IMG/VR virus record: IMGVR_UViG_2721755728_000004
DNA length: 49,782 nucleotides
Reading direction: 5' to 3' (one strand)
From: a virus
Lineage: Duplodnaviria > Heunggongvirae > Uroviricota > Caudoviricetes
Under the pieces are notes generated by a model. The model had not been told where the DNA came from. It was given only the letters and a program-made list of their open reading frames with translations, and ran no database searches. Position 1 is the first letter of the stretch, and the number at the start of each line of letters is the position of its first letter. This document shows, in pieces, positions 23,585-49,782 of this stretch. Made by a program: the position numbers and the translations under genes.

Positions 23585-23630
23585 CCTGAACCAGGAATTA
23601 TTCTTCGGACTGGTCGTCGGTGTACTGCGG

Positions 23631-28454: not shown

Positions 28455-28474
28455 ATGATTAGCAGTTATGGTGC

Positions 28475-30624: not shown

Positions 30625-30985
30625 AATTATTACCTTTTGAAGAAATTAGCCCTTGGGCAGAATGGTCCGAAAAAAATATCAGAGAGAAAAACCAACAAGG
30701 AAATCTCAAGAGGTACAAATAATAAAATTATAACAATGACTGCTTCAGATAAATTTGTAACAAACCAGAACACCATTAACGCATGATTAACCACCCATAG
30801 CAAGGATTACTTTTGTAAAGAAAAACACAGCAATGAAAGAATAGCTTTATTTATTAATAAAACGTGTCATTCTGATTAAGACCTTTTATCTTACCCTTAA
30901 GATTTCAGGAATTTTGGCTCATGGAAGAGTCCTTTTTATTCAAATTTTACATTCCGCGATGTAAATGTTCCGATTTAATATTACC

Positions 30986-32009
<1,024 letters not shown>

Positions 32010-32013
<4 letters not shown>

Positions 32014-32321
32014 AGATATTTATGATGAGGACGCTCGTGCTTATTGGCAGGATTTTCAATCTTAAAGGAGTACTGATGCTGCAGATAAGACTCAACTTTT
32101 TCTGACAATTTTTCTGCTACTTCCAGGAAGACTTGCCGGACGCTCCTTCTGGCTGCTGCCTCATAAAACTCCAGCGCAGCTCCTTCAACACGGTCCATGG
32201 CGACATCCAGGTCAAAAATTTCACCGTCAAAGCGTTCTTTGTCCTGTAAGGCTACAGTTACCGTAACTTTATTCTCAAAATTACGGACTCCTTTCACAAC
32301 CAGTTCATAGTCTTGAGTCAT
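32010..32321 (-). CDS. ydfR: Prophage protein YdfR-like
   Basis: 103 aa between holin and endolysin, as in Qin. Confidence 0.7.
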
Positions 32322-32325
32322 TGGA

Positions 32326-32541
32326 TTACTCTCCTCTCGCAGCCTTACGCCTGTCTTCTTTAATCTTGAAATAAAGATTTGTCAGATACGTCAGCAGGCC
32401 AAAAACCAGGCTACCCAGCACACCGATTGCAGCCCACTGTGACGGAGTTACTTTATCGAGTAACTGCAATGCCCAGAAACCAGCATTACCCGCCGATGTG
32501 CCATAGGCAACACCTGTTGTTAACTTATCCATTGATTTCAT
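32326..32541 (-). CDS. essQ: Holin (phage 21 S-like)
   Basis: 71 aa from [11 protein letters not shown].. with two TM segments and a charged C-terminus. Confidence 0.8.
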
Positions 32542-32760
32542 ATCCTCACCCCGATGTACACGGATGGTGCAATATGTTTGAAAAGATCGGAGTCTACGGG
32601 GTAGTTTTGACAGCACACGTTGTTCTCAACGGCGCTAAAAAAACATACACATTAAAAATGTGGGTAATTATTTTGAAAGAAAGTCATATATAAAATAATA
32701 ATACGAGAAATGTTTTCATATTTAGTGTACTGTATACGGCCATTTATACAGGAAAAGCCT

Positions 32761-32931
32761 ATGTCAGAACGTAAAAACTCAAAATCACGCCGTAATTATC
32801 TCGTTAAATGTTCCTGCCCAAACTGCACCCAAGAGTCAGAACACAGTTTTTCAAGAGTACAAAAAGGTGCCCTTTTGATCTGCCCTCATTGCAACAAAGT
32901 ATTCCAGACAAATCTTAAAGCTGTAGCCTGA
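32761..32931 (+). CDS. Small zinc-ribbon protein (two CxxC pairs)
   Basis: 56 aa from MSERKNSK.. with CPNC..CPHC; RBS AGGAAAA; a hairpin terminator follows at about 32995..33012. Confidence 0.45.
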   Translation: MSERKNSKSRRNYLVKCSCPNCTQESEHSFSRVQKGALLICPHCNKVFQTNLKAVA

Positions 32932-33294
32932 TTGATTTTATTAGTAACAAGTATTTTTTATATTTTAATAATATATTTAAAGCAGATAATAAAAAACCCG
33001 CCTGAGCGGGTTTGAGATTGTGGTGCTTTTTGTGGGAGTCATCCACTTACGCACTTTGTTTTGCCATGCCAGCAGTTAGCTTCTGCTGTAAAACTATTCA
33101 TGCAGCAAACCTGCACTTCACCACAATGGTTAGCATACTTTTCCTGATTAAGATTTTGCCAAATATGCTAGCCATTGTTTCATGTATTGGACCTCCTTAC
33201 TTTTTATTAAAGAGATCCAATATTCACTACTCTGTCCGTATCTCTACTCAGGCATCAGCCTTCTTCGTTATCGTATACAGACGAGCGATGAATT

Positions 33295-33510
33295 TTAATC
33301 AGTAATGATGACATTTGCTGCTGCAGGACCTTTAGCACCACTCTCTATAGAGAAGGTAACCTTTTGACCTTCAAATAAGGTTCGATAATTATCATTCTGA
33401 ATCGCAGAAAAATGCACAAACACATCTTTACTACCATCAACAGGAGAAATAAAGCCGAAACCTTTATCAGCGTTAAACCATTTTACTAAACCAGTCATTT
33501 TATTTGACAT
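33295..33510 (-). CDS. cspB: Cold shock protein (CspA family)
   Basis: 71 aa, [23 protein letters not shown].. Confidence 0.9.
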
Positions 33511-33809
33511 TCTACATTCCTTAACTTGAGCCTTTCGGCATAAATGGTTTGCATAACAGAAACGACTTCGTACTTAATTGGAGAGACTCAAAGAAGGAAT
33601 AAGTGAATAACACCTGAAATGAGAACTGCTTTAGTAAACTACTTCGTATATCGTCTGTTCTTCAAACCGACGCAATCATTAACGCATAGTTGAACATATG
33701 AAGCAATGTTTATTTTAGACATCCAGCCATCTTCAACCCCATCAAAAAACTATAGCTTTCTTCAGGAACGTGTGTATAGTGCGCCAAGTTATCAGTATTA
33801 AGGAATTTT

Positions 33810-34022
33810 TTGTCCCGTAAAATGACAGGAATTGTCAAAACCTTTGACGGCAAAAGCGGCAAGGGTCTTATCACCCCATCCGATGGTCGTATCGATGTCC
33901 AGCTTCATGTTTCAGCGCTCAATCTCCGCGATGCAGAAGAAATTACCACCGGATTACGCGTGGAATTTTGCCGGATAAATGGTCTGCGTGGCCCTTCAGC
34001 TGCCAATGTTTACCTTTCATGA
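33810..34022 (+). CDS. cspF: Cold shock-like protein
   Basis: 70 aa, [23 protein letters not shown].., divergent from cspB. Confidence 0.85.
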
Positions 34023-34433
34023 GCTATATTAAAGCTTTAATTTCAGGCCCCATCGGATCACACATGGAGAGTTTTTATGAATAACCCCGTCTGTCTTGAT
34101 GACTGGTTGATTGGCTTTAAAAGCTTATGCTGTACTTTGGCCGTAATAGCTCTGCTAATAATATAATAAGCAGACTCATTGTGTTTAGGGACATTGTACT
34201 GGAAGAAAACATTTTAAACATCAGGCAAATAACCAAGTCACCAGCTAAATAATAAGTTAACAGACATGAGTCCCGGGACATTACCATTGCCCCATTTAAA
34301 GCACAAAACCCGCTCATCAGCGGGTTTTCTACTTTTTCTTAACGTCGGGTATACAAAGCCCATCGTTGAAAAAATTTTATCCATATTTTTTGAAGAATGC
34401 AAACATCATGTCGCCATCTTCAGCAAAAATCAT

Positions 34434-35186
34434 TTATCTCGTCACCTTCCTCAATTGCGCTTCCGCGTATGCTTCTTCCTGCCAGCACTTTGTTACCAGT
34501 TTACCAATGACGTCCGCATACCCCTTATACCACTGATAATCGGTCAGGTCTGGTACCAGCTTCTGGACATGACGTCGTGCCAGCGTGGTCGGTAAACGAC
34601 TAAACCGGTTTCCATTACAACGCCCACAAATCTTATATACCGGTACGCCATGAAACCGGGTTCTTTTTTCATCCAGAACAATCCCTTTACCCTTACACCC
34701 TCTGCACGCTGTGCTGGCTTCGCCCTTACCATGGCAATGCTGACATAGTTCCTTCACCCATTCTTCCTTGATTACAGATTCCCCGCGTCTGTAGTGTTTC
34801 ACCACTTCGCGCAATACATTATAAAATCCCGTACCTGAACAATGCTCACAGCGAGCCTTACTTGCCGCAGACCTGGAGTAATCAGCAAAGGCAAAACTCA
34901 CGAGGTAAGGAATAATCTGTAACCGGATTTCTTCACTCAATTTGTTCAATGTCGGGTTATCCAGTGCCATCGCGTAATTTAGCAGGCCTTCAATCGCAAA
35001 CTGAGGGTCCTGAACACCAACTTTTGCCAGAAATAAGGCCAACCCAAGTGGTGCTTTCGACTGCACCATCCCCTGCGCTGCCATTACATCCGTAATTGTT
35101 AAACAACCGGTGCCTGTCGCTGGAGCGTCATCGCTCAATTTTGGAGATTTTGGGGAGTAATATTTTGGTAAGGCTTCAAGGTTCAT
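34434..35186 (-). CDS. Late-gene antiterminator Q (phage 82 Q-like)
   Basis: 250 aa from MNLEALPKYY.. with cysteine-rich zinc-binding region; sits upstream of the lysis cassette. Confidence 0.8.
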   Translation of the reverse strand: MNLEALPKYYSPKSPKLSDDAPATGTGCLTITDVMAAQGMVQSKAPLGLALFLAKVGVQDPQFAIEGLLNYAMALDNPTLNKLSEEIRLQIIPYLVSFAFADYSRSAASKARCEHCSGTGFYNVLREVVKHYRRGESVIKEEWVKELCQHCHGKGEASTACRGCKGKGIVLDEKRTRFHGVPVYKICGRCNGNRFSRLPTTLARRHVQKLVPDLTDYQWYKGYADVIGKLVTKCWQEEAYAEAQLRKVTR

Positions 35187-35199
35187 GCTCGTTCTCCAC

Positions 35200-36288
35200 T
35201 TACGCCAGTACGCCAATTGCCAGCGCGCGATCGATAAAACGAAATATCAGCTCCAGTTGGGAGCCATACTTATCTTCAAATGCCACTGTATCCGTATGCA
35301 GCTCGTTGTGATGCTTTCTGCACAAAGGCAACACAAAGAGATCATGTGCTTTTGTTCCCATTCCGCCCTGCCCGTGACCAATCAGATGATGCGGATCGTC
35401 GGCTGGCATACCGCAGCAAGCACACGGCTGTGTCTTAACCCAACGTGTGTATTTCTCCTTAACCCAGCGGCGACGTTTAGGCAGCTTCATGAAAGATTCC
35501 GGAGACTCTGGATCAACGGTGATGCTTACCACCGTCTTTTCCTGTGGTGATTTTTGTTGCTGGTGGGCGTAAGGCAACGGTGCAAGATTTTTTGTGCGTT
35601 GTTTCAATATGCTGGTGGCGGTCTGCTCTCCCGGTACGATGTCGCTTTCGCGGTACACCGAGCAGATTTTTTCCGCTGGTAATCCCAGCGAACGACGCGA
35701 TACAGCCTCAGGTAGTGCATCCACCACCTGATTGCAGACCGCCCACCAGGATAATTCAGCCAAAGATAATTCCCGCTCCTGCGTACCGCTTATTGCGTGA
35801 CGGATGACGTCAATCACCCATGCTGTCAGATTTTGTTGAGCAAGCAGCTCCAGTGATTCCGATGTCTGGTCACGCAGTTGGTTGTCGCAGTGCCAGCACA
35901 ACACCATTGCGCCGGTACCATAACGGTGAATGACTGTTTCAGTGTGATGGTAATCGCCATTAGGCCACTGGCAGGATGTAACATGACGTAATAGCCAGTC
36001 GGACAATGCGCCAACGCCGCCAGCAGCACGAATCACCCGTTCGTTACTAAAAAACGGCAGCAATGTTTTGTCTTCCGCCAGCGGCTGGCGAACGGCAGGA
36101 ACGACTCCGGATGGCAGATTACGCATGCTTTTTGGTTCCGGTTCCACCAGCACTCGAGGATTATGAAATATCTGTATGGATTCACGGCCCGGCTTAAGGA
36201 CCACCAGCCCAAGCTCAGGCACCAGAACAGGTCTAAGTAATACCCGCACGTTACCTCCAGATCCGTTGCTGGAAAGTGCGGGACGCAC
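35200..36288 (-). CDS. DUF968-type prophage protein (YdfU-like), HNH-like Cys/His cluster
   Basis: 362-aa ORF with C-terminal CxxC..HH motifs; true start may be internal. Confidence 0.65.
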   Translation of the reverse strand: MRPALSSNGSGGNVRVLLRPVLVPELGLVVLKPGRESIQIFHNPRVLVEPEPKSMRNLPSGVVPAVRQPLAEDKTLLPFFSNERVIRAAGGVGALSDWLLRHVTSCQWPNGDYHHTETVIHRYGTGAMVLCWHCDNQLRDQTSESLELLAQQNLTAWVIDVIRHAISGTQERELSLAELSWWAVCNQVVDALPEAVSRRSLGLPAEKICSVYRESDIVPGEQTATSILKQRTKNLAPLPYAHQQQKSPQEKTVVSITVDPESPESFMKLPKRRRWVKEKYTRWVKTQPCACCGMPADDPHHLIGHGQGGMGTKAHDLFVLPLCRKHHNELHTDTVAFEDKYGSQLELIFRFIDRALAIGVLA

Positions 36289-36529
36289 GTGGTGGGCGTT
36301 CGGAATAAGGCAGCCTGACAGAGATTATCCAGTGCCGATAGTCGAGACTGAGAGCTTTCTTAACCTCGAACCCGCGCCTGCGGTAAGAATGAATCAGCCA
36401 TTCGGCCTGTTCTGCAGTGCATGGAGGGTGCTGGAACCATTCAGACTTGAATGCGTGAGAATACCGCCCGTGCGTGCAGGCAAGAACGGGCGAATTATCA
36501 GAATTGTAATATTTTGCGTTGCGTGCCAT
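36251..36529 (-). CDS. Hypothetical protein (92 aa)
   Basis: ORF only; overlaps the upstream end of the ydfU-like ORF; no family recognised. Confidence 0.35.
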   Translation of the reverse strand: MARNAKYYNSDNSPVLACTHGRYSHAFKSEWFQHPPCTAEQAEWLIHSYRRRGFEVKKALSLDYRHWIISVRLPYSERPPRASRTFQQRIWR

Positions 36530-36595
36530 CGGTTTTCTCCGGTGGCACGGTGTTACTCAGCGGGAGTTCAGCCCCGCGCAAGATTGTAGATGAGT

Positions 36596-36847
36596 TTATT
36601 CTCCTGAAAAAGCAGAAAAGCCAGCTTTTATTCCGATCTCTTTCAATGCCTGTAATGAAGTGACAAACTCACCTTCGCGCAAGATAAATCCGTCCGTGAC
36701 CCGAGCATCCACAAAATTAATTAACGCAGCCCCATTCTTTCGCAAACACATAATGCGGTAATGACTAACAAGATTTCCATTTTCAACGCACACAGCATAG
36801 AGGCCATCTTCACAAAAAATTTTACGCAGTTCTTCGATGTTCATCAT
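36596..36847 (-). CDS. Small prophage protein (Rem-like)
   Basis: 83 aa, position upstream of relBE-hokD as in Qin; identity from memory. Confidence 0.55.
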   Translation of the reverse strand: MMNIEELRKIFCEDGLYAVCVENGNLVSHYRIMCLRKNGAALINFVDARVTDGFILREGEFVTSLQALKEIGIKAGFSAFSGE

Positions 36848-36963
36848 CAGAATCCTTCCGGATAATTAGCTCTCCCCTTTAAGGGACCATCCCTCTTATC
36901 CCTGCGCGCTACTTAAGTATTTTTGATTCTATTCCGGCACCGTCCAGAACTTCAAACGCGTTG

Positions 36964-36994
36964 AAAATAAAAACAAAAACCCGCCGAAGCGGGT
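36964..36994 (-). terminator. Rho-independent terminator after hokD (end of relBE-hokD operon)
   Basis: Hairpin acccgccgaagcgggt followed by a T-run on the minus strand. Confidence 0.6.
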
Positions 36995-37063
36995 TAAGTG
37001 CGGGTGCGTTGAGGATGCCTGCCACATCAGAGGTGGCGAGGGATTTCTCCCCCGCCGGGTCTC

Positions 37064-37219
37064 TTACTCCTCAGGTTCGTAAGCTGTGAAGACAGCGACC
37101 TCCGTCTGGCCGGTTCGGATTCGTACCTCGCAGAGGTCTTTCCTCGTTACCAGTGCCGTCACTATGACGGTTAAACAGATGACGATCAGGGCGATTAACA
37201 TCGCCTTTTGCTGCTTCAT
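37064..37219 (-). CDS. hokD: Hok-family membrane toxin (HokD/RelF)
   Basis: 51-aa ORF below the track cutoff, found by hand: MKQQKAMLIALIVICLTVIVTALVTRKDLCEVRIRTGQTEVAVFTAYEPEE. Confidence 0.85.
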   Translation of the reverse strand: MKQQKAMLIALIVICLTVIVTALVTRKDLCEVRIRTGQTEVAVFTAYEPEE

Positions 37220-37290
37220 AGCCTGCTTCTCCTGTCAACGCAAAGCAGAAGTGTCACCTTCGGTGCGAAACAGAGATGTCATGCTTTGGT

Positions 37291-37578
37291 TCAGAGAATG
37301 CGTTTGACCGCCTCGCTATATACTTCCGAGCGTTCTCTTTTCCCAACAGAAATCACGAAAACGACAACTTTCTCGTCTATAACCTGGTATACAAGGCGAT
37401 AGCCTGAAGACCGGAGCTTAATCTTGTAACAATCAGGCATACCACGGAGCTTGTTTGCTTCAATCCGGGGTGACTCAAGTACTTCAACCAGCTTCTTTTT
37501 CAACTGTTCACGTACCGTCGAGCCCAGCTTTCGCCATTCCTTTAGTGCCCGCTCGTCAAAATCCAGAAAATACGCCAT
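37291..37578 (-). CDS. relE: mRNA interferase toxin RelE
   Basis: 95 aa, MAYFLDFDERALKEWRKL.. Confidence 0.9.
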   Translation of the reverse strand: MAYFLDFDERALKEWRKLGSTVREQLKKKLVEVLESPRIEANKLRGMPDCYKIKLRSSGYRLVYQVIDEKVVVFVISVGKRERSEVYSEAVKRIL

Positions 37579-37817
37579 CAGAGTTCATCCAGCGTCACAC
37601 GTACTGGCTTAGGATTACGAAGCCGTTCTTTCACTATCTCCACAAGTTCAGCATCTTCATCACTCAGGAGTGTCTGTTTGAACGGCAAGCGTTCATTGTC
37701 AGCGATATACTCGAGCATGAGACGAAGCGCTTCAGAAGGAGTTACACCCATTTTTTCAAGCGCGGCGTAAGAACGCGCTTTAAGTTCATCGTCAATACGC
37801 AGGTTAATGCTACCCAT
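37578..37817 (-). CDS. relB: Antitoxin RelB
   Basis: 79 aa, MGSINLRIDDELKARSY..; stop overlaps the relE start. Confidence 0.9.
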   Translation of the reverse strand: MGSINLRIDDELKARSYAALEKMGVTPSEALRLMLEYIADNERLPFKQTLLSDEDAELVEIVKERLRNPKPVRVTLDEL

Positions 37818-37828
37818 GTCTTACACCT

Positions 37829-37854
37829 CTTGTAATTACAAATGTCATTACAAG
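37829..37854 (-). promoter_or_regulatory. relBE operator/promoter region (TTGTAAT palindromic repeats)
   Basis: cttgtaattacaaatgtcattacaag lies immediately upstream of the relB ATG and contains the perfect palindrome ttgtaattacaa. Confidence 0.5.
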
Positions 37855-38299
37855 TATCGCACTACAACATGCTTAGGGCAAGTCACGAAGGAAGTCAGAA
37901 AGTAGTCGTAAGAACGGTGATCACTGTCCGCTTTGTGCCAGGAGCAGCCATTGCTAAGTCCATCCTGTATTGTGCAGGTCAGCTCGCTTTTAAAGAGTCC
38001 GGCCATCATCTTACTGGTACAGACACCATATACTTTGTGACGGTCAGGCTACATATGCACAACTCAACTTATTCATCTATTTTTTGCTTTAGCATGTCAG
38101 TGTTGCTTTCTCGTCGGCGGGTGAGCGGTGACCTGACCTGTCGATAAAGGAACGTAGCACGTTTTATGCAACACCCGCATGCGGCAGAAAATTATTGCCG
38201 AACGTTTACCCCTGTCAACAAGCTTTACTTTCTGAGGCGCGCCAGCCCGCGAGGAAAACAATCTGAACATCAAACAATTAATGACACAAGAAATACGAT

Positions 38300-38326
38300 T
38301 AAAGATTTTTTTGTGCATGCCGATAG
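38300..38326 (+). promoter_or_regulatory. Sigma-28 (FliA) class 3 promoter for flxA
   Basis: TAAAGATT-N11-GCCGATAG, close to consensus TAAAGTTT-N11-GCCGATAA, 24 nt upstream of the flxA ATG. Confidence 0.6.
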
Positions 38327-38349
38327 TGCTTTTTTAAAAGGAGAAATCT

Positions 38350-38682
38350 ATGTCTGTCACAATTCAGGGAAATACCTCAACCGTTATTTCAAACAACTCC
38401 GCCCCGGAAGGAACATCAGAAATAGCCAAAATCACAAGACAAATTCAGGTGCTGACTGAAAAGCTTGGGAAAATCTCATCGGAAGAGGGGATGACGACAC
38501 AGCAGAAAAAAGAAATGGCTGCATTGGTACAGAAGCAAATTGAAAGCCTCAGGGCTCAACTGGAGCAGTTGTTAAGGCAGCAGGCAGAGAAAAAGAATAA
38601 AGACGCGACAGTTCAGCCTGATAAAAAAGAAGAGAAAAAAGACGATACAAATACCGCTGGCACCATTGATATTTACGTCTAA
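38350..38682 (+). CDS. flxA: FliA-regulated protein FlxA
   Basis: 110 aa, MSVTIQGNTSTVISNNSAPEG..; RBS AAAGGAG. Confidence 0.85.
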   Translation: MSVTIQGNTSTVISNNSAPEGTSEIAKITRQIQVLTEKLGKISSEEGMTTQQKKEMAALVQKQIESLRAQLEQLLRQQAEKKNKDATVQPDKKEEKKDDTNTAGTIDIYV

Positions 38683-38696
38683 GTGACAGCCGTATT

Positions 38697-38720
38697 GTGG
38701 CCCTCATCGGGCCACTTTTC
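38697..38720 (+). terminator. Rho-independent terminator of flxA
   Basis: Hairpin gtggccc-tcatc-gggccac followed by TTTT. Confidence 0.6.
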
Positions 38721-38898
38721 GCCATCAGCCTTTTCTTTAAAGACATATTATCTTTGTATCATTTCTGATAGTTAACATTACAAGATATAAGTAATGGACG
38801 CACTCCCAATTAGTCTATTTAAATCGCCACGAGTTTAACTGACAACCCATGATCAATTATGAATTGCAACTATTTCTGTAGTCACTTTTGTGGGGACA

Positions 38899-40482
38899 GT
38901 CCACAAAACTGCCAACTTCCGCTTCTTGCTCTTAGCGGACATTAGCATAGGCTATTTACCATAACGCCTCATTACGCGCACCGCCCAGACTGACTCAGCG
39001 CGTTTCTGGCATATCCCCGGTAAAACAAGTAACAAACCACCCGAAAATGAACACCAGAAACGCGACTTAAGAATCTACCCTATGAATGGATATGCACTCA
39101 ACCGAATCGATCTTGGTTTCAATCTATTTTATCGGGATCAGGCTTCTTTTTAGGTAACTTCGGGGGCTTAACTTGCTGATGACTTTGCGTTCGGCGCGTA
39201 GGCCAGGGATGGTCAGCTTTAGATTTAACATAGTATTTTGAGCGTAAATCAATACGGGCATTATCCACTCGTTCATGGACACTCTTTTCATCATCCAGTG
39301 GTATAGGCTCCGGGCCATCAACATACTTTTCCCAGCCCAGCGCTTTCCCGTCATACAGAACGTTAATTTCACCGTCAAAGTTCTCACATACAGTAACAAC
39401 CGAATGCCTAAGTCGATATCCCCGGCCCTCACTGCGTACCTGAAACGCACTGCTTTTGTACTGGAAAGTGAGATTTTTAGACAGAACGCGCTTCGCCTGT
39501 AGGCTGAAGATATAACCCAGTTCCTCTTCAGAATGGTGCACATCAAGATGAGCATTATCAGTAGTACGAGGCGACGTAGCGAACCGGTTGTTATAGGCTT
39601 CAATAAAGGTCGGCAACCATGCATTTGCTGTTTCAATATCACTGATATTCTGAAGCCACATTTCTTTGACCAGCCTGTCCTGTAGTGTCTGATTGGCGCG
39701 CTCTACCCGCCCTTTTGCCTGCGGGCTGTTGGCATGGATTGGCTCGATGCCCAGTGTCTTTATCGCACGAGTGAACTGGGTCAGCTCACCTTCCCGCTCT
39801 GGGTTATTTACCCTGAATATACTGTGTCTATCAGAGTAGAGAGCGAGCGGTACGCCATGATCATTAAGGTAACCCCGGAGGGTTTCCATGTAAGCCCGGG
39901 TTGTTTCAGCAGGCACAAAACGCAACGCCATCAACGCACTGGTGGCATCATCAATGAAAACGATCAGTGTACATCTGGGGCCTCGATTTTCAAACCAGTC
40001 ATGAGGTGAGCCATCAATCTGGATCAGTTCACCGTAAGATGGTCGTCGCATGCGGCGTTGATATATACGGGCAATTTTACGACGGCGTTCACGCCATAAC
40101 CCCTCTTCTATCATCCACTTTCTGAGAGTTTCAACGGATAAAGATAAACCGTGTATCTCGCGCAATTTTTCGCACGCAAACGTAGGTCCAAAATCAGCGT
40201 AACGGCCTTTGAGGAGTGAAATTACTGTTGCTCTGAATTCAGTAGAAAAGGAATTATTAGGACGCTTTCCACGTCGGTGGGAAACCAGACCAGAAGGCCC
40301 TTCATTTCTATACCGTTGCACCAGACGTTTAACCTGCCGAATAGAAATGCCAATGCGTGCCGCAGCTTGTTCCTGAGTAATATGTCGATTAATTGACTCC
40401 TGAATAATCTGAAGTCGGTGGAGTTCCTTATGACTCATCGTAACAGTCTCTTTGATCATGAAAAATCCCCCAGAGAATTGTC
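38899..40482. mobile_element. Putative insertion sequence, about 1.58 kb, carrying one DDE transposase
   Basis: Bracketed by identical 8-bp direct repeats TGGGGACA (38891..38898 and 40483..40490) that may be a target-site duplication. Terminal inverted repeats could not be identified, so boundaries are tentative. Confidence 0.4.
39119..40459 (-). CDS. DDE transposase with integrase-core (rve) domain and N-terminal HTH (IS481/ISNCY-like)
   Basis: 446 aa; HTH N-terminus, then D (QIDGSPH), D (YSDRHS) and E (GRVERANQ) spaced like retroviral-integrase-type transposases. Confidence 0.7.
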   Translation of the reverse strand: MIKETVTMSHKELHRLQIIQESINRHITQEQAAARIGISIRQVKRLVQRYRNEGPSGLVSHRRGKRPNNSFSTEFRATVISLLKGRYADFGPTFACEKLREIHGLSLSVETLRKWMIEEGLWRERRRKIARIYQRRMRRPSYGELIQIDGSPHDWFENRGPRCTLIVFIDDATSALMALRFVPAETTRAYMETLRGYLNDHGVPLALYSDRHSIFRVNNPEREGELTQFTRAIKTLGIEPIHANSPQAKGRVERANQTLQDRLVKEMWLQNISDIETANAWLPTFIEAYNNRFATSPRTTDNAHLDVHHSEEELGYIFSLQAKRVLSKNLTFQYKSSAFQVRSEGRGYRLRHSVVTVCENFDGEINVLYDGKALGWEKYVDGPEPIPLDDEKSVHERVDNARIDLRSKYYVKSKADHPWPTRRTQSHQQVKPPKLPKKKPDPDKID

Positions 40483-40492
40483 TGGGGACATT

Positions 40493-40912
40493 TTAGAATG
40501 GTTCAAAGGGGACATTACAGCTTGATGTTAACAATAGCCTGCTTCTCCTTGCCTTCCGGCACTCGCGACAGATTATGTTTAGACGACTGTCGTAGCGACG
40601 TATTTCTCCGTCAGGTAATGACCAGATAAGGTCCGGATCAACCACAGCAGGTTTCTTCACCTTTGCCCTCGAGAGTTTTTTGCGGGCGTTTTGCCAGTCC
40701 TTACGCGCCTGTTCAGACGGGAATAACCCGTAACCAGAGCTGTATACATCGCCACTGGCAACCAGCTCTCTGGCCAGAACGCTCATCAGATATCTTGTTG
40801 CCCCAGTTTTAGCTTCCAGTTGTCGTAACGTCTCGCGCCCACTCTGGCGTACGAGTTCCACCACCTGCCCTTTAATTTTTTCCCGCTCTTCTTGTGTAAA
40901 AACTTTTGCCAC
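40493..40912 (-). CDS. Hypothetical early-region protein (139 aa)
   Basis: ORF ending 3 nt outside the putative IS; basic C-terminus; no family recognised. Confidence 0.45.
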   Translation of the reverse strand: MAKVFTQEEREKIKGQVVELVRQSGRETLRQLEAKTGATRYLMSVLARELVASGDVYSSGYGLFPSEQARKDWQNARKKLSRAKVKKPAVVDPDLIWSLPDGEIRRYDSRLNIICRECRKARRSRLLLTSSCNVPFEPF

Positions 40913-40952
40913 AAGTCCTCCTGAACATTACTTTATACCCTAAAATCAACAC

Positions 40953-41972
40953 TTATCCCCTGAAACCAGGCGGAATTTCTGTATCCGGTTCAGAAATATG
41001 ATTCACACAACGCTTTACAGGTGAACGTCCCAGGCGGATGACCAGTTCGTCCCATTTTTCGCGGAGTTTTGACGGGCTCATGATGTTTTTTACCCAGAAT
41101 TGATCTCGCTGTACCCGACCAAACATTTCGCAAATTTGTCTGTGGCTTCTGCCATCCAGCATCCGCATTGTGCGCACGTCATTGGCCCAGGCTGTCCAGT
41201 TAGGCTCTTTTGGTCGCATGATCTCTCCATCGTCGCTGGCAGCCTGTTCGTAAAGGTTCACGATCCGCCCCCAAATCCACTGCGCACACGCCAAATCCTC
41301 CCTGCTACCCCACTGGCGTTTTTTCGCACTAAACACAACCGCGTCGGGGTTCCGGGTTAAAAAATCCTGTTCAGCGGTCTGCGGGTCCGGTTGCGAAGCT
41401 TCCGGACGAAAAGTGTTTTTATTCTCTGTAGTAATCTCTGTTGTATTCTCTGTAAGATCATCAGGCCATTTTGACCCGATGACATTGGGTCGTTTTGAAC
41501 CAATGGAGCGTTTCATTTTGACCTCTTCCATCGTGTCATTTTGACCTGATGGAGCGGCGCATTTTAAACCGATGGATTCGCTCAATTTGCCACCATCTAA
41601 AAGCTCGCTCCCGTAGTTGATCGTGTAGAAATTGGTCATATCGCGCTTTGATTTATTGAGCTTTTCACAACGCAAAAGCCCCAGCGTTTTCAGACTTGCA
41701 AACGCGCGCTTTAACGTTGACTCTGACCAGAATGGGAACTGTTCCAGCCATTGTTCCGTTGTGTTGTAAATCCAGCGAACACCATCACATTCCATGCCGG
41801 AATTGGTATCTCTCAACCAGTAATGCAACTGCTGCAACACAATGGCTTCATTTAAGCCAATCTTCATCGCAAGCTGTGTGTTTATAACCAGTGGGCGTTC
41901 AGCAAAAAGAAGGCTCATAATTCCATCCAGCTTTTTGTTGGTATTGCTGTCGATACGCAAGTTTGAAAGCAA
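40953..41972 (-). CDS. Phage replication initiation protein (O-like replisome organiser)
   Basis: N-terminal region resembles phage replisome-organiser domains; downstream of the Cro-like gene in the rightward early operon. Confidence 0.55.
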   Translation of the reverse strand: MLSNLRIDSNTNKKLDGIMSLLFAERPLVINTQLAMKIGLNEAIVLQQLHYWLRDTNSGMECDGVRWIYNTTEQWLEQFPFWSESTLKRAFASLKTLGLLRCEKLNKSKRDMTNFYTINYGSELLDGGKLSESIGLKCAAPSGQNDTMEEVKMKRSIGSKRPNVIGSKWPDDLTENTTEITTENKNTFRPEASQPDPQTAEQDFLTRNPDAVVFSAKKRQWGSREDLACAQWIWGRIVNLYEQAASDDGEIMRPKEPNWTAWANDVRTMRMLDGRSHRQICEMFGRVQRDQFWVKNIMSPSKLREKWDELVIRLGRSPVKRCVNHISEPDTEIPPGFRG

Positions 41973-42420
41973 TTGCTTTTTCTATAAGTTCGTCAGTTTC
42001 ACGATCCACTACGGCAGGATCAGCAAAAAGCAGTCCGGACTCCACCACATCGCCATATTCTTTGTTTAACCCGGCGATCATGTACGTGATGCTTTTTCCG
42101 TCACTAATTTCACGATACAACCTGAAATCATTAATCCGAATAGCCTCCATAATTGCAGGCACTAGCGCCGTGAACTTTTCACGCTTATCCCTGGTGTCGA
42201 TAGCCTTCCAGCGTTCGAATATCTTCACTCGATTAACGCCAAGTGCTCGCTGATCAACCGCGCCACCTTCATCTGTGACACGCTGAACATCGATGTTCGG
42301 GCGCTCTTTCAAAGCCCAGAATGCTTCAGTGATTAATATCGTCGCCTGCTCCTGTGTCATTCCTGGTCGACATATCCAGGCATCCAGAGCCTCACGAGCC
42401 TGTTCAGGAGTGATTTTCAT
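41899..42420 (-). CDS. Hypothetical early protein (possibly YdaT-like)
   Basis: 173 aa directly downstream of the Cro-like gene, the position YdaT-family proteins occupy in Rac-like prophages; no sequence-level confirmation. Confidence 0.4.
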   Translation of the reverse strand: MKITPEQAREALDAWICRPGMTQEQATILITEAFWALKERPNIDVQRVTDEGGAVDQRALGVNRVKIFERWKAIDTRDKREKFTALVPAIMEAIRINDFRLYREISDGKSITYMIAGLNKEYGDVVESGLLFADPAVVDRETDELIEKAIAFKLAYRQQYQQKAGWNYEPSFC

Positions 42421-42631
42421 TGTTCAACCGCCCCGCCCGCTTCGTCTTACGATATTCGTCATAAACCTTGGGATCATACAGAAGCTCGCCGCCAGATGCC
42501 TCCTGTAGACGCATCGCGCGACCTTCAGGAACCAGCTCTTGCCATTGAGAAACAGCAGATGGGTCAACGCCAGCAGCTTTCGCTACTTTGGCTTTCGTAC
42601 CGTAAAAATTAATTACGTCTGATTTAAACAT
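42404..42631 (-). CDS. Cro-like HTH regulator (DicC/YdaS-like)
   Basis: 75 aa from MFKSDVINFYG.., divergent from the DicA-like repressor. Confidence 0.7.
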   Translation of the reverse strand: MFKSDVINFYGTKAKVAKAAGVDPSAVSQWQELVPEGRAMRLQEASGGELLYDPKVYDEYRKTKRAGRLNNENHS

Positions 42632-42708
42632 CGCACCTCCAATATTGAGTTTTCTCAATGCTAATCACTCAAGGAATCTCAAGTCAAGGGTTATTAAGAT
42701 ATCTAAAT

Positions 42709-43116
42709 ATGAACGAGAAAACTTTAGGTCAACGCATTAGAGAAAGACGTAAGCAGGTAGGCTTAAGTCAAAACGGTTTAAGCAAAGCTGCTGGCGTATC
42801 TGGCTCATCAATTTCATTATGGGAAAGTGACCATACAGCCCCGCGCGGGCAAAATTTGCATCGCCTCGCCGAGGTATTGCAATGTTCACCAACTTGGATA
42901 CTGTTTGGCGACGAGGACAAAACACCAGCTCCCCCTGTTTCACTCGATAGTGCCTTAGACTTATCGGAAGATGAGTTAGAGATGCTGCGTTTGTATCGCG
43001 CACTTCCTAAATCAGAGCAACAAGCACAACTCAGCGAACTCCGCGCCCGCGTTGAGAATTTTAATCGCCTGTTCACCGAGCTATTAGAGGCTCGCAAACG
43101 CAACAAGCATCAATAA
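42709..43116 (+). CDS. dicA: XRE-family repressor DicA
   Basis: 135 aa; HTH and the conserved stretch LQCSPTWILFGDEDK match DicA as I recall it. Confidence 0.85.
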   Translation: MNEKTLGQRIRERRKQVGLSQNGLSKAAGVSGSSISLWESDHTAPRGQNLHRLAEVLQCSPTWILFGDEDKTPAPPVSLDSALDLSEDELEMLRLYRALPKSEQQAQLSELRARVENFNRLFTELLEARKRNKHQ

Positions 43117-43308
43117 TCATCCCTTCACAAAATTTTAAAGCCTTACATTTCAATGTATTGGCTTTATCTTGCGCCAACACTTGAGTTTTCTAATCAAAAA
43201 ACCTTGACGAAAAATAATGAGAAAACTAAATTACCTCCATCAAGACACCGCACGGTGTTCTCAGCAAACAGTTCCGCTACCCCGGCGTTAAGGGGAAATG
43301 AGGTCAGC

Positions 43309-43464
43309 ATGGATACTATCGATCTTGGCAACAGCGAATCTCTGGTATGTGGCGTGTTCCCCAACCAGGACGGCACGTTCACCGCGATGACGTATACCAA
43401 AAGCAAAACGTTTAAAACCGAAAATGGTGCCCGTCGCTGGCTGGAAAGAAACTCAGGTGAGTGA
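43309..43464 (+). CDS. ydfA: Small protein YdfA (DUF1391)
   Basis: 51 aa, MDTIDLGNSESLVCGVFPNQDGTFTAMTYTKSKTFKTENGARRWLERNSGE; RBS GAGG. Confidence 0.75.
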   Translation: MDTIDLGNSESLVCGVFPNQDGTFTAMTYTKSKTFKTENGARRWLERNSGE

Positions 43465-43465
43465 T

Positions 43466-44041
43466 ATGGATTTCGACACAATCATGGAAAAGGCTTACGA
43501 AGAATACTTCGAAGGCCTTGCCGAAGGCGAAGAAGCTCTCAGCTTCAGTGAGTTTAAACAGGCACTCAGAATAAGAATGTGCTCTCACAATGACGCGGAG
43601 CACAAATATGAGAAGCAAAATCAGACCGCAGAAAATTTTGTTCTGGAACCCGGAGAAACGCTTTTCAAAATTCCCGTTACGTGCCCCATTTGCGGTTTTA
43701 CATCAGAAGAACTTGACGACTCCTGTAACAATCAGGAAACAACCAAGTATGTCGAAGATGATACCGAGTGCGCACGAAGAACGATTATATCCACGAGTCC
43801 AAACTCCAGGACCAATAAATCTCACTATGAGAGGGTGATTAATCCACTCCCCCAAACCAATAAAAAAGATGCCGGAGGACAAAAAACCCAATGGAACAAC
43901 GGGATATCTGTCAAAAAAAGACGTTCCATTAAAGACAAACAACGCAGCGCCAACAACTGTAAGAGCTTTATACCAGTAATCAATTTTCATGTTCTTAAGC
44001 GGATTTATTGGTGGTTGCGACATTGCTTAATGAATCCTTAA
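43466..44041 (+). CDS. Hypothetical protein covering the YdfB/YdfC region as one 191-aa frame
   Basis: Starts MDFDTIMEKAYEEYFEG.. right after ydfA and contains a CPICGF motif; K-12 annotates two short genes here, from memory. Confidence 0.5.
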   Translation: MDFDTIMEKAYEEYFEGLAEGEEALSFSEFKQALRIRMCSHNDAEHKYEKQNQTAENFVLEPGETLFKIPVTCPICGFTSEELDDSCNNQETTKYVEDDTECARRTIISTSPNSRTNKSHYERVINPLPQTNKKDAGGQKTQWNNGISVKKRRSIKDKQRSANNCKSFIPVINFHVLKRIYWWLRHCLMNP

Positions 44042-44300
44042 AACTGTGGTGATTTTAAGGATACCACCTCGCCTGACGTGGTTAAAAGCAGGCACACAAC
44101 ACGAAAGCGCACGGCGAAGTTCGTCTCACTGTACGGTGTCGTTAAATTTAATTCGACCGTGCGCTTCCGGTTGTGGCAACCCGCAAAATGGCGCGGCGGT
44201 AAGTATGGCGGGGTTATTCCTTCCCCGTTGAGGACACCGGGTTGTCAGGTTGACCATACGCTTAAGTGACAACCCCGCTGCAACGCCCTCTGTTATCAAT

Positions 44301-44358
44301 TTTCTGGTGACGTTTGGCGGTATCAGTTTTACTCCGTGACTGCTCTGCCGCCCTTTTT
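44301..44358 (+). ncRNA. dicF: DicF small regulatory RNA
   Basis: tttctggtgacgtttggcggtatcagttttactccgtgactgctctgccgcccttttt matches the DicF sequence as recalled, including the terminal hairpin and U-run; lies between ydfC-like and dicB. Confidence 0.8.
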
Positions 44359-44527
44359 AAAGTGAATTTTGTGATGCGGTGAATACGGCTAAGCGCACGC
44401 GGAACAGTTAAAACCAAAAACAGTGTTATGGGTGGATTCTCTGTATCCGACGTTAATTGTTAACTGGTTAACGTCACCTGGAGGCACCAGGCACTGCATC
44501 ACAAAATTCATTGTTGAGGACGCGATA

Positions 44528-44716
44528 ATGAAAACGTTATTACCAAACGTTAATACGTCTGAAGGTTGTTTTGAAATTGGTGTCACTATCAGTAACCCTG
44601 TATTTACTGAAGATGCCATTAACAAGAGAAAACAAGAACGGGAGCTATTAAATAAAATATGCATTGTTTCAATGCTGGCTCGTTTACGTCTGATGCCAAA
44701 AGGATGTGCACAATGA
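44528..44716 (+). CDS. dicB: Cell division inhibitor DicB
   Basis: 62 aa, MKTLLPNVNTSEGCFEIGV..LMPKGCAQ. Confidence 0.85.
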   Translation: MKTLLPNVNTSEGCFEIGVTISNPVFTEDAINKRKQERELLNKICIVSMLARLRLMPKGCAQ

Positions 44717-44904
44717 ATTCAGCATTTGCGCTTGTTCTGACAGTTTTTCTTGTTTCCGGAGTGCCAGTTGATATTGCAGTCAGTGTTCACAGGACAATGC
44801 AGGAGTGTATGACTGCAGCAACCGAACAGAAAATTCCCGGTAACTGTTACCCGGTCGATAAAGTTATTCACCAGGATAATATCGAAATCCCGGCAGGTCT
44901 TTAA
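44713..44904 (+). CDS. ydfD: Small membrane protein YdfD
   Basis: 63 aa, MNSAFALVLTVFLVSGVPV.. with one TM segment; start overlaps the dicB stop (ATGA). Confidence 0.75.
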   Translation: MNSAFALVLTVFLVSGVPVDIAVSVHRTMQECMTAATEQKIPGNCYPVDKVIHQDNIEIPAGL

Positions 44905-44997
44905 AACAGTTCCGTAATAAATATCCGGTTTCATTCTTATATGCCAGCAATGGCAGGGATTTGTTCATCCTTAAATCTGTCATGAGGTTAAAACAAA

Positions 44998-47469
44998 ATG
45001 AGTAAAGTCTTTATTTGCGCCGCTATTCCTGACGAACTGGCAACAAGGGAAGAAGGCGCTGTGGCTGTAGCCACAGCCATTGAAGCTGGCGACGAACGCC
45101 GTGCTCGAGCAAAATTTCACTGGCAGTTCCTGGAACATTATCCGGCTGCTCAGGACTGCGCTTATAAATTTATTGTCTGCGAGGATAAACCTGGCATACC
45201 CCGCCCTGCCCTCGATTCATGGGATGCTGAATATATGCAGGAAAACCGCTGGGATGAGGAGTCTGCTTCTTTTGTCCCGGTTGAGACTGAATCCGATCCG
45301 ATGAACGTCACTTTTGACAAGCTGGCCCCTGAAGTACAGAACGCTGTCATGGTTAAGTTCGACACATGTGAAAACATCACCGTTGATATGGTTATTAGCG
45401 CACAGGAATTGTTGCAGGAAGACATGGCAACATTCGACGGACATATCGTTGAAGCGTTGATGAAAATGCCAGAAGTTAACGCCATGTATCCGGAGCTTAA
45501 GTTGCACGCCATTGGGTGGGTTAAGCATAAATGTATTCCTGGTGCTAAATGGCCCGAAATTCAGGCAGAGATGCGCATCTGGAAAAAACGTCGCGAAGGT
45601 GAACGCAAGGAAACCGGAAAATACACGTCTGTTGTTGATCTCGCCCGCGCCAGAGCCAATCAACAGTACACTGAAAATTCAACAGGAAAAATCAGCCCGG
45701 TCATTGCTGCCATTCATCGCGAATACAAGCAGACATGGAAAACACTGGATGACGAACTGGCCTACGCTCTCTGGCCTGGTGATGTGGATGCCGGAAACAT
45801 TGACGGCAGCATCCATCGCTGGGCAAAAAAAGAAGTTATCGACAACTACCGCGAAGACTGGAAGCGTATCTCGGCATCAATGCGCAAACAGCCTGATGCC
45901 CTTCGCTACGACCGCCAAACTATTTTTGGCCTTGTCCGTGAGCGTCCGATCGACATTCACAAAGATCCCGTAGCACTGAACAAATATATCTGCGAATACC
46001 TGACGACAAAGGGCGTGTTTGAGAATGAAGAAACAGACCTGGGCACTGTTGATGTTCTCCAGTCATCAGAAACACAAACTGATGCAGTGGAAACTGAGGT
46101 ATCTGATATCCCAAAAAATGAAACCGCGCCGGAAGCTGAACCATCTGTAGAGCGTGAGGGGCCGTTCTATTTCCTCTTCGCAGATAAGGACGGAGAAAAA
46201 TACGGTCGCGCAAACAAACTTTCTGGTCTGGATAAGGCAGTGGCTGCTGGCGCCACTGAAATCACAAAAGAAGAATATTTTGCCCGAAAAAATAGCACAT
46301 ACACGGGCTTACCGCAAAATGTAGATACCGCTGAAGATTCAGAACAACCAGAGCCGATAAAAGTTACCGCTGACGAAGTAAACAAAATTATGCAGGCAGC
46401 CAATATCAGCCAGCCTGACGCCGATAAGTTGCTTGCTGCATCACGTGGTGAATTTGTTGAAGGGATTAGTGACCCGAATGATCCGAAATGGGTTAAGGGG
46501 ATCCAGACCCGCGATTCTGTGAACCAGAACCAGCATGAATCGGAACGGAACTACCAAAAAGCGGAACAAAACAGTCCAAATGCGTTACAAAACGAGCCAG
46601 AAACGAAACAGCCTGAACCAGTGGCGCACCAGGAAGTGGAAAAAGCCTGCACCGCCTGCGGTCAGACCGGCGGCGGCAACTGCCCTGATTGTGGCGCGGT
46701 GATGGGCGACGCAACATACCAAGAAACATTCGATGAAGAGTATCAGGTTGAAGTTCAGGAAGATGATCCGGAGGAAATGGAAGGCGCTGAACATCCACAC
46801 AAGGAGAACACTGGCGGCAATCAGCATCACAATAGCGATAATGAAACTGGCGAGACGGCAGATCACCCAATTAAGGTGAACGGTCATCACGAAATCACAT
46901 CCACCAGCAGGACGTGTGACCATCTAATGATCGACCTTGAAACCATGGGAAAAAATCCTGATGCCCCGATCATCTCAATAGGTGCAATATTTTTCGATCC
47001 GCAAACCGGAGATATGGGACCGGAATTTAGTAAGACTATCGATCTGGAAACTGCTGGCGGAGTCATTGATCGGGACACCATTAAATGGTGGCTTAAGCAA
47101 TCACGCGAAGCGCAATCTGCCATTATGACCGATGAAATCCCGTTAGATGATGCACTGTTACAATTGCGGGAATTTATCGACGAAAACTCCGGTGAATTTT
47201 TTGTTCAGGTTTGGGGAAATGGAGCCAACTTCGACAACACGATTTTGCGTCGTTCATACGAACGGCAGGGGATCCCCTGCCCGTGGCGTTACTACAACGA
47301 TCGCGATGTACGCACAATCGTTGAGCTGGGGAAAGCCATAGACTTCGATGCCAGAACGGCTATTCCATTCGAAGGTGAGCGCCATAATGCACTTGATGAC
47401 GCCCGTTACCAGGCAAAATACGTTTCAGTTATCTGGCAAAAACTGATCCCGAGTCAGGCTGATTCTTAA
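44998..47469 (+). CDS. Large prophage protein with C-terminal DnaQ-like 3'-5' exonuclease domain (YdfE-like)
   Basis: 823 aa; C-terminal DEDDh motifs (DLETMG, WGNGANFD, HNALDDARYQ); Cys4 motif CTACGQTGGGNCPDCG; acidic central region. Confidence 0.7.
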   Translation: MSKVFICAAIPDELATREEGAVAVATAIEAGDERRARAKFHWQFLEHYPAAQDCAYKFIVCEDKPGIPRPALDSWDAEYMQENRWDEESASFVPVETESDPMNVTFDKLAPEVQNAVMVKFDTCENITVDMVISAQELLQEDMATFDGHIVEALMKMPEVNAMYPELKLHAIGWVKHKCIPGAKWPEIQAEMRIWKKRREGERKETGKYTSVVDLARARANQQYTENSTGKISPVIAAIHREYKQTWKTLDDELAYALWPGDVDAGNIDGSIHRWAKKEVIDNYREDWKRISASMRKQPDALRYDRQTIFGLVRERPIDIHKDPVALNKYICEYLTTKGVFENEETDLGTVDVLQSSETQTDAVETEVSDIPKNETAPEAEPSVEREGPFYFLFADKDGEKYGRANKLSGLDKAVAAGATEITKEEYFARKNSTYTGLPQNVDTAEDSEQPEPIKVTADEVNKIMQAANISQPDADKLLAASRGEFVEGISDPNDPKWVKGIQTRDSVNQNQHESERNYQKAEQNSPNALQNEPETKQPEPVAHQEVEKACTACGQTGGGNCPDCGAVMGDATYQETFDEEYQVEVQEDDPEEMEGAEHPHKENTGGNQHHNSDNETGETADHPIKVNGHHEITSTSRTCDHLMIDLETMGKNPDAPIISIGAIFFDPQTGDMGPEFSKTIDLETAGGVIDRDTIKWWLKQSREAQSAIMTDEIPLDDALLQLREFIDENSGEFFVQVWGNGANFDNTILRRSYERQGIPCPWRYYNDRDVRTIVELGKAIDFDARTAIPFEGERHNALDDARYQAKYVSVIWQKLIPSQADS

Positions 47470-47541
47470 TGTTCAACTGTCGCCGGTTGTGACTGGTATT
47501 CTGCAACCGGCGCTCGTCTGATGTAAGAGATAAAGAAATCG

Positions 47542-47793
47542 ATGAGCGAAGTAATCATGATTGTCTCTCCCGGCAAATGGGTATCCGAAGAGCAGTTAAT
47601 TGCGCTGAAAGGAATAAAAAAAGGTACGTTAAAAAAGGCCCGGGAAAAATCGTTTATGGAAGGAAGGGAATATAAGCATGTCGCTCATGACGGTATGCCA
47701 TGGGATAACAGTCCATGCTTTTACAACCTGGAAGAAATTGATCGCTGGATTGAGCGCCAGGCATCAGCAAGACCAAGACGTCATCTTACTTGA
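47542..47793 (+). CDS. Excisionase-like protein
   Basis: 83-aa basic protein immediately upstream of int; assignment by position and size only. Confidence 0.45.
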   Translation: MSEVIMIVSPGKWVSEEQLIALKGIKKGTLKKAREKSFMEGREYKHVAHDGMPWDNSPCFYNLEEIDRWIERQASARPRRHLT

Positions 47794-47812
47794 CTAAAAG
47801 CCACACTAACTA

Positions 47813-49279
47813 ATGAGAGAAGTTGAAATGAAATATCCGACAGGCGTGGAAAACCATGGAGGGAAATTACGTATCTGGTTTGTTTATAAAGGCGTAAGAG
47901 TCAGGGAAAACCTGGGGGTTCCTGACACAGCAAAAAACAGGCGCGTTGCAGGTGAGCTACGCGCCTCTGTTTGTTACGCAATAAAAACTGGTGTTTTCGA
48001 CTATGCAAAACAGTTTCCCTCCTCACGCCATCTGGAAAAATTTGGTGAGACCCGACAAGATTTAACCATAAAAGAACTGGCTGAAAAATTTCTGGCACTG
48101 AAAGAAACTGAAGTCGCAAAAACATCACTCAACACATACCGTGCCGTCATCAAAAATATCCTGAGCATAATCGGTGAAAAAAATCTTGCCTCATCGATTA
48201 ATAAAGAAAAATTACTGGAGGTTCGTAAAGAGCTACTGACTGGATACCAGATCCCCAAAAGTAACTATATTGTTACACAACCAGGGAGATCGGCTGTAAC
48301 TGTAAATAATTACATGACAAATCTTAACGCCGTGTTCCAGTTTGGTGTTGATAACGGTTACCTGGCAGATAACCCGTTTAAGGGGATCTCGCCATTAAAG
48401 GAATCAAGAACCATTCCGGATCCTCTTTCGCGGGAGGAATTCATCCGTCTTATCGATGCGTGCAGAAATCAGCAAGCCAAAAATTTATGGTGTGTTTCTG
48501 TTTATACTGGCGTTCGCCCTGGTGAGCTGTGTGCACTTGGATGGGAGGACATAGATCTGAAAAATGGAACAATGATGATCAGGAGAAATTTAGCAAAAGA
48601 CCGTTTCACGGTACCAAAAACACAGGCGGGAACCAATCGGGTCATTCATCTTATTAAGCCAGCAATCGACGCTCTCCGGAGTCAGATGACATTAACGAGA
48701 CTGAGCAAAGAGCATATCATTGATGTTCACCTCAGAGAGTATGGCAGAACAGAAAAACATAAATGCACCTTTGTTTTTCAACCTGAAGTGTCAGCGAGAG
48801 TAAAAAATTATGGTGACCATTTTACCGTTGACTCAATAAGGCAGATGTGGGACGCAGCGATAAAACGTGCCGGACTCCGCCATCGAAAATCATATCAGTC
48901 GAGACATACTTATGCCTGCTGGTCGCTGACAGCTGGTGCTAACCCGGCATTTATAGCAAACCAGATGGGCCATGCAGATGCGCAAATGGTATTTCAGGTA
49001 TACGGAAAATGGATGTCTGAAAACAATAATGCACAGGTAGCTTTGTTAAATACACAGTTAAGCGAGTTTGCCCCAACCATGCCCCATAAATCTTCAATGC
49101 TTTTACCAAAGCGCGCCGCTTCAATAGGCGTTAAGCGATGGTGCATGTCATGCAGCAAATGTTCATTAAAACCAAACTTGTTACGTACCGCGTCAAACAA
49201 TTTCGGCATGAAATCGAGGTATTTCTCCGTCGACCACAGCTGCTCTTCCGGCCACTGTCCTTTGGTTGCGGGTTCATAA
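47813..49279 (+). CDS. Tyrosine integrase; the 3' end of the ORF reads into host rspA antisense sequence
   Basis: Catalytic region with ..HTYACW.. and ..[16 protein letters not shown].. (LGH...Y motif, Tyr near 49004). The last 63 codons beyond about 49089 are antisense to rspA and are probably not native. Confidence 0.8.
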
Positions 49280-49782
49280 GCCAGACCTTTACCTTTCGAC
49301 ATGCCGTAGGTGGTTTTCATACCAGGGATTCCGCACTGCACGCGGATGGCTTTGAATCCCAGCTCCTGATGACGGGCATAATCATCCAGAGCTTCATCAA
49401 TACTGTGACCGGTGGTATGGCAATAAACCATCACCCCTTCACGAGACGCGCCGCCGAGTAACTGGTAAAGCGGCATGTTGGCCGCTTTGGCTTTAATATC
49501 CCACAGCGCCATATCAACCGCTGAAATGGCCGACATCGTAACCGGACCGCGACGCCAGTAAGCACCTTTATAGAAAAACTGCCAGATATCTTCGATACGG
49601 TGCGCATCGCGACCAATAAGCTGCGGACAAAGGTGATCCTGCAAATAAGAGGCCACGGAAAGCTCACGTCCATTGAGAGTGGCATCCCCAAGGCCCGTAA
49701 TACCGTCCTCAGTGGTGATTTTTAATGTGACGAAATTACGCCCCGGACAGGTAACAAAAACTTCAGCCTTTACGATCTTCAT
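49090..49782 (-). pseudogene. rspA: Enolase-superfamily dehydratase RspA, 3'-truncated at the prophage junction
   Basis: N-terminus [33 protein letters not shown].. starts at the window end. The ORF is only 262 aa (family members are about 400 aa) and diverges after ..FGKSIED into sequence encoded by phage DNA. Confidence 0.6.

Follow-up and report, generated by a model that had tools for sequence, protein, structure and literature searches.

A single illegitimate deletion of 1,758 bp across the right boundary of a lambdoid prophage very probably grounded this prophage in Escherichia coli strain C3 and inactivated the adjacent rspAB genes. The window, that is the whole stretch of 49,782 nucleotides analysed here, starts at the ydfJ stop codon and ends exactly at the rspA start codon (49782). 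The chromosome of strain C3 (NZ_CP010119.1, cow) matches the 1,083 bases spanning the int-rspA junction at 100% and in one piece, and the junction is present in 1 of 5,426 complete E. coli genomes, strain C3 only; a search of metagenome contigs with a 40-nt junction sequence returned 0 matches. We propose that one recent non-homologous deletion in the C3 lineage would have spanned the right boundary of a Qin-type, mEp460-like prophage integrated in ydfJ, taking attR, rspB and the back half of rspA and adding a nonsense tail of 63 residues to the integrase (Int). The features on which this reading is built are the following.

1..1284, minus strand: ydfJ cut by the prophage insertion, 427 aa, without its first 28 codons and promoter (ORF)
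1276..1286, plus strand: attL common core GAAATCCATAA, sole perfect copy in the window
1287..49089, no strand: retained body of the Qin-type/mEp460-like lambdoid prophage, 47,803 bp, collinear with the OkiPb01675 prophage
47542..47793, plus strand: excisionase gene xis, 83 aa, intact (ORF; WP_000005552.1)
47828..49087, plus strand: native part of int, codons 1-420 of 426 (common prefix with intact Int)
49088..49279, plus strand: non-native tail of int, 63 codons and stop, antisense to rspA (translation)
48994..49089, minus strand: non-native tail of the rspA ORF, 31 codons and stop, antisense to the int 3' end (translation comparison)
49089..49090, no strand: deletion junction, 1 bp (A) of ambiguous origin (BLAST breakpoints, three-way alignment)
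49090..49782, minus strand: native 5' part of rspA, codons 1-231 of 404, 100% identical to rspA of many strains

As comparator for the deletion we used OkiPb01675 (bovine faeces; sequence L003), which carries the same prophage and in which both junction flanks are 100% identical to the window. In this strain an int of 426 aa is followed by 187 bp (attR), rspB (339 aa) and rspA (404 aa), all of them intact. The breakpoint was placed by megablast/BLAST and a three-way junction alignment; the alignment is exact and involves no statistics, so that chance plays no part. By megablast, the int/phage-derived DNA ends at 49089 and the rspA-derived DNA covers 49089..49782. Since window base 49089 aligns by BLAST to both L003 45443 and L003 47202, C3 is without L003:45444-47201, a loss of 1,758 bp relative to OkiPb01675 with breakpoints at L003 45443/45444 and 47201/47202. 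The missing DNA comprises 56 bp of phage and 1,702 bp of chromosome, and is made up, from the int side to the rspA side, as follows.

19 nt: end of int (16 coding nt and the stop; last 6 codons)
37 bp: phage arm from the int stop to the core
11 bp: att core (attR)
82 bp + 57 bp (139 bp total): remaining ydfJ 5' fragment and spacer to rspB
1,020 bp: rspB, complete
11 bp: spacer between rspB and rspA
521 nt: 3' end of rspA, last 173 codons

Counted with the core, the ydfJ 5' fragment lost by the deletion is 93 nt, and rspB (L003:45650-46669) lies wholly within the deleted interval. Consequently int directly adjoins rspA in C3, without rspB, the ydfJ 5' fragment or an att core between them. This absence had been read from the sequence in the original prediction and is borne out by the alignment and by a core search; so is the proposal, made there, that a deletion removed the right attachment site and fused the prophage end to rspA. 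The gene order given there for K-12 (intQ, a ydfJ 5' fragment, now ynfP, rspB, rspA) is correct as well, and alignment to a prophage-free locus and to K-12 confirmed which part of ydfJ-rspB-rspA is lost and that the core is shared. The two hybrid frames had also been described accurately: the rspA-like frame was said to be native only down to about 49090, with a stop at 48994 and 262 aa, and we find the breakpoint at 49089/49090 and 231 native codons; the integrase frame was said to continue 63 codons past the same point as antisense to rspA, and after 420 of 426 shared residues exactly 63 follow.

The fate of the missing DNA was followed with a chimeric query, consisting of the junction region and the reverse-complemented deleted segment, on the C3 chromosome and in control genomes. 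The query is found in 1 place on the C3 chromosome and in 2 in the control genomes; by this measure the deleted segment, including rspB and the 3' half of rspA, has no further copy on the C3 chromosome. An earlier chimeric query that included the 3' end of the exonuclease gene gave 3 places in both C3 and control, the extra ones presumably being due to paralogues of that 3' end.

The core GAAATCCATAA is common to attL in the window, attR in OkiPb01675 (L003:45500-45510), attB in the empty-site strain DDG206 (L006:3501-3511) and attP of mEp460 (L007:3819). The four sites are consistent with each other, attP (mEp460_ev081 record) being composed of the left half of attR and the right half of attL, and the unoccupied attB of DDG206 of the left half of attL and the right half of attR. 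Likewise, the left flank of attL in the window matches attB and its right flank matches the mEp460 attP. On the int side, the left breakpoint of the deletion lies in phage DNA, 57 bp short of the core, and in empty-site strains the match to the deleted segment begins only at nt 54-57, i.e. at the core. A search for a second perfect core in the window found none besides 1276-1286. Since the phage sequence stops 57 bp before the core position and only one core is present in the window, the whole int-proximal attachment site (attR) is gone.

Lambda-type excision is Int/Xis recombination between attL and attR. By this mechanism we infer that the C3 prophage cannot excise precisely and would be grounded, despite the xis gene, the catalytic core of Int and the attL that remain. 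The original prediction had the prophage locked in and rspAB inactivated, had named an intact rspA continuing in the strain as evidence to the contrary, and had considered a duplicated core at both ends with rspA interrupted by simple insertion. The deleted segment is found at no other place on the C3 chromosome (1 versus 2 in controls), and the sole perfect core is the one at 1276-1286, at the left end in ydfJ. Both consequences are thus supported, with the refinement that the lock-in would follow from the loss of attR and not from a loss of Int, which keeps its catalytic residues including Tyr392. Loss of att or of the recombinase is the route described for grounded prophages (PMC6379469), and a related ydfJ prophage, the att of which has been defined in ydfJ, was shown by attP PCR to excise (PMC8112680).

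The integrase ORF (47813..49279, plus strand) encodes 488 aa, or 483 aa with the ATG at 47828 as start. The frame has its first ATG at 47813 (MREVEMKYP...), and 47828 (MKYPTG...) is the int start in PGAP and in phage records; the latter is preceded by a purine-rich GAGAAG and places the Arm-binding domain at residues 4-67. Pfam detects Arm-DNA-bind_2 (PF12167) at these residues, with E = 7e-24, and the catalytic domain (PF00589) at residues 201-392. The R (TGVRPGEL), YQSRHT, MGHAD and QVY(392)G motifs line up with those of Tn1549 Int (6emy), in an alignment that extends through residue 399, and the conserved Arg, (His/Tyr)-x-x-Arg, His and nucleophilic Tyr are thus all upstream of junction residue 420. 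The last six residues, NEAMKN, are replaced by the 63 residues antisense to rspA; the native C terminus is absent, and PGAP flags the C3 int as 'missing C-terminus'. The Xis protein accession, WP_000005552.1, is the same in C3, CFSAN064036 and OkiPb01675.

On the opposite strand, the rspA-like ORF (48994..49782, minus strand) encodes 262 aa. The truncated RspA retains the N-terminal capping domain MR_MLE_N (PF02746) at residues 13-110 (E = 7e-36), while MR_MLE_C (PF13378), found at 188-379 in intact RspA, has no Pfam match in the 262-aa product, in which MR_MLE_N is the sole domain match. In the RspA/D-mannonate dehydratase subgroup of the enolase superfamily, the MR_MLE_C barrel domain bears the metal ligands and catalytic residues. 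Intact RspA matches PDB 4il2 over residues 1-404, and its full length is covered by matches to the solved E. coli RspA and to D-mannonate dehydratases. PGAP already marks the C3 rspA as 'incomplete; missing C-terminus'. The product of rspB is a Zn-dependent dehydrogenase, encoded downstream of rspA. From the loss of rspB and of the rspA 3' half, the rspAB pathway would be dead in C3. A literature search on RspA with L-gulonate returned no paper on the function of the protein; our statements on RspA physiology draw on domain and structure matches and on general background.

The loss of rspAB was probably neutral, ydfJ-ydfI having been separated from the rspAB gene string by the prophage beforehand. 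Strains with an empty site have rspA, rspB, ydfJ and ydfI in tandem, all in one orientation, beside rspR, and intact YdfJ has 455 aa in DDG206. The insertion had itself broken the rspA-rspB-ydfJ-ydfI string and removed the ydfJ upstream region (see also PMC6379469); PGAP flags the ydfJ equivalent of OkiPb01675 as 'missing N-terminus'.

How the junction arose can be judged from its sequence. The microhomology at the crossover is 1 bp, an A common to both parents; a search for direct repeats at the deletion endpoints found none, and no IS sequence is present at the junction. A homology- or repeat-mediated deletion is rejected on endpoints that have 1 bp in common and no direct repeat, and an IS-mediated adjacent deletion on a junction without IS sequence. 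Six nt to the right of the crossover, CAATG is common in register to both parents (window 49095-49099; L003:45449-45453; L003:47208-47212), which might have had a weak stabilising effect as microhomology or be coincidental. As a microhomology driving the deletion it was set aside and treated as coincidence, the product having the rspA version of the five intervening bases. The perfect identity of the flanks to OkiPb01675 indicates that the deletion would be recent.

The C3 junction rests on one assembly record, and the assembly might have dropped 1.76 kb from a strain that really has intact attR-rspB-rspA. Such an artefact would fit with the junction being found in a single record among the 5,426 complete genomes and in none of the metagenome contigs. 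Assemblers collapse sequence at repeats, however, and here the endpoints have 1 bp in common and no direct repeat flanks them, both junction flanks are otherwise perfect (100% to OkiPb01675), and the missing segment has not ended up at another place on the C3 chromosome; we therefore regard an artefact as very improbable. An aberrant recombination carried out by Int between pseudo-cores in the int 3' end and in rspA is more improbable still. The int-side breakpoint CCCCATAA and the rspA-side GCGATAA do both end in ATAA, like the core GAAATCCATAA, but each site matches the core at only ~6/11 positions, and the true core, 57 bp away, is itself deleted. Moreover, had the exchange been conservative and in the ATAA register, the product would read CCCCATAATCTTC, while the window has CCCCATAAATCTTC, with one extra A. 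Because the product of an Int-type exchange would thus be one base shorter, we reject site-specific in favour of illegitimate recombination.

The adjacency of int and rspA could by itself also be read as integration of the phage into rspA at a secondary attachment site, with rspA interrupted and not deleted. This adjacency is all that speaks for such an event, the chance of which we put close to nil: the other prophage end is a canonical attL in ydfJ, neither the 3' half of rspA nor rspB is found at the left end or elsewhere on the chromosome, and the phage side, too, ends 56 bp early, with loss of the int stop codon. The attL in ydfJ, the single core and the missing phage end together refute it. 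A single illegitimate deletion of 1,758 bp is hence the reading that we retain.

The int and rspA flanks were matched in 5,381 of the 5,426 genomes, while at least 80% of the deleted segment is present in 4,882 and the segment is at least partly present in 5,069, which leaves about 190 genomes with a partial segment and up to about 310 without it. On this difference, damage at the boundary between the ydfJ prophage and rspAB is, to judge by the genome counts, not rare, and it takes several forms. In CFSAN064036 and TUM9868, the same prophage int lies beside a damaged rspAB that would stem from an independent non-homologous deletion. This deletion is of 1,048 bp (L003:46188-47235) and falls wholly within rspB-rspA; int (426 aa) and attR are intact, unlike in C3. 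At the CFSAN064036 junction (L002:5134-5135), which is also that of TUM9868, an rspB that has lost its N-terminal half is fused to rspA codons 1-220, and the rspA breakpoint of the two strains is only 34 bp from the rspA breakpoint of C3. Further records (H108-H110) are truncated at other points.

We also observed an imperfect inverted repeat of 35 nt in this region (L003:46223-46257 and 47192-47226), with arms that are 74% complementary and 934 nt apart. The C3 rspA breakpoint falls within the right arm, and the CFSAN064036 deletion takes in both arms close to its ends. As there are 30 weak pairs in 2.1 kb, of which this one is the longest, the repeat may be due to chance.

The C3 prophage is otherwise close to complete. 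Its gene content was transferred from the OkiPb01675 annotation and related records, and the order is ydfK, pinQ, tail fibre, morphogenesis, lysis, Q, relBE/hokD, immunity region, dicB, exonuclease, xis and int. The OkiPb01675 prophage is collinear with the window, with 99.74% identity over 34.7 kb, and the mEp460_ev081 genome record covers 77.5% of the prophage collinearly, with 99.15% in the late region. The tail-assembly segment 10957-14346 has no match, or ~87% identity, to the OkiPb01675 prophage and mEp460, and this mosaic suggests a recombinational module swap. There is likewise no mEp460 match for 37233-40555, which holds a partial ISEsa1 (IS1202-like) transposase pseudogene at ~39387-40459 (from L003:35743-36813), in the early/nin region beside flxA, relBE and hokD. 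The side tail fibre gene (3883-6803, minus strand) is split into two overlapping ORFs of 516 aa and 469 aa; the second runs into an out-of-frame translation rich in Arg, Pro and Gln, and the equivalent in OkiPb01675 is annotated as 'frameshifted'. Among RNA elements, Rfam detects, all at gathering score, the DicF sRNA at 44302-44353 (plus strand), two cspA-type thermoregulator leaders at the cspI and cspB copies (30385-30769 and 33279-33671, both minus strand), and IS009 RNA at 3342-3540 (minus strand), antisense within the tail fibre assembly gene.

The closest known case is Qin of K-12, which occupies the same ydfJ site with the same 11-bp core at both ends, has the same left-end genes ynfT, ydfK, pinQ and tfaQ, and shares with the C3 prophage the cargo relBE, hokD, cspB/F/I, dicB and DicF. 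Both prophages are immobilised at the int end. Qin, however, is a 20-kb remnant in which int is cut by IS2 and attR, ynfP, rspB and rspA are intact, whereas the C3 prophage has 47.8 kb, a full morphogenesis module and an almost full-length int, and has lost attR, rspB and half of rspA. Qin in ydfJ is among the examples of grounded prophages, with intQ mutations named for it (Ramisetty & Sudhakari 2019, PMC6379469). Grounded prophages as described there are, as the C3 prophage would be, non-excisable through mutation of att or the recombinase; in contrast to Qin, it is the cis site attR that is deleted in C3, together with flanking host genes, while the catalytic residues of Int are kept. Among deposited phage genomes, four (mEp460, HannyBb, PhiR42_1 and Tritos) have an integrase 98.8-99.3% identical to that of the C3 prophage. 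The mEp460 record has a complete attP (int stop, 37 bp, core, ydfK side) and the full 426-aa int. Compared with it, the C3 prophage has lost, on the int side, the 56 bp that precede the core, and it carries different mosaic modules in the nin/Q region and in part of the tail region.

A more ambitious reading would hold that the attR deletion was a selected domestication step and not neutral decay, fixing an otherwise complete and inducible mEp460-like prophage in a bovine strain, and that a structure-driven deletion hotspot lies beside ydfJ prophages. The basis for a hotspot is the pair of independent rspA breakpoints 34 bp apart, in or beside the right arm of the weak 35-nt inverted repeat. 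We consider this combined proposal improbable. If domestication were true, the induced prophage would replicate in situ without excising, and the cell would be killed without phage release, or the adjacent ynfA-speG-ynfE chromosome would be amplified and mobilised.

The type of event is textbook, a strain-specific case of routine prophage grounding and genome decay, and the truncated genes are already flagged as pseudogenes in RefSeq (PGAP); the C3 junction is of little consequence outside the bookkeeping of strains. For annotation, neither the 488-aa 'integrase' ORF nor the 262-aa 'RspA' ORF is a new protein, both being artefacts of the fusion, and prophage-prediction tools would probably score the C3 element as 'intact' though it would be non-excisable. 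The junction nevertheless offers a natural example, resolved to the base, of how a small illegitimate deletion, by taking away one att site along with flanking host genes, would render a near-complete lambdoid prophage non-excisable, and C3 might be used as a natural attR-minus control in work on ydfJ prophages, in-situ replication and lateral transduction.
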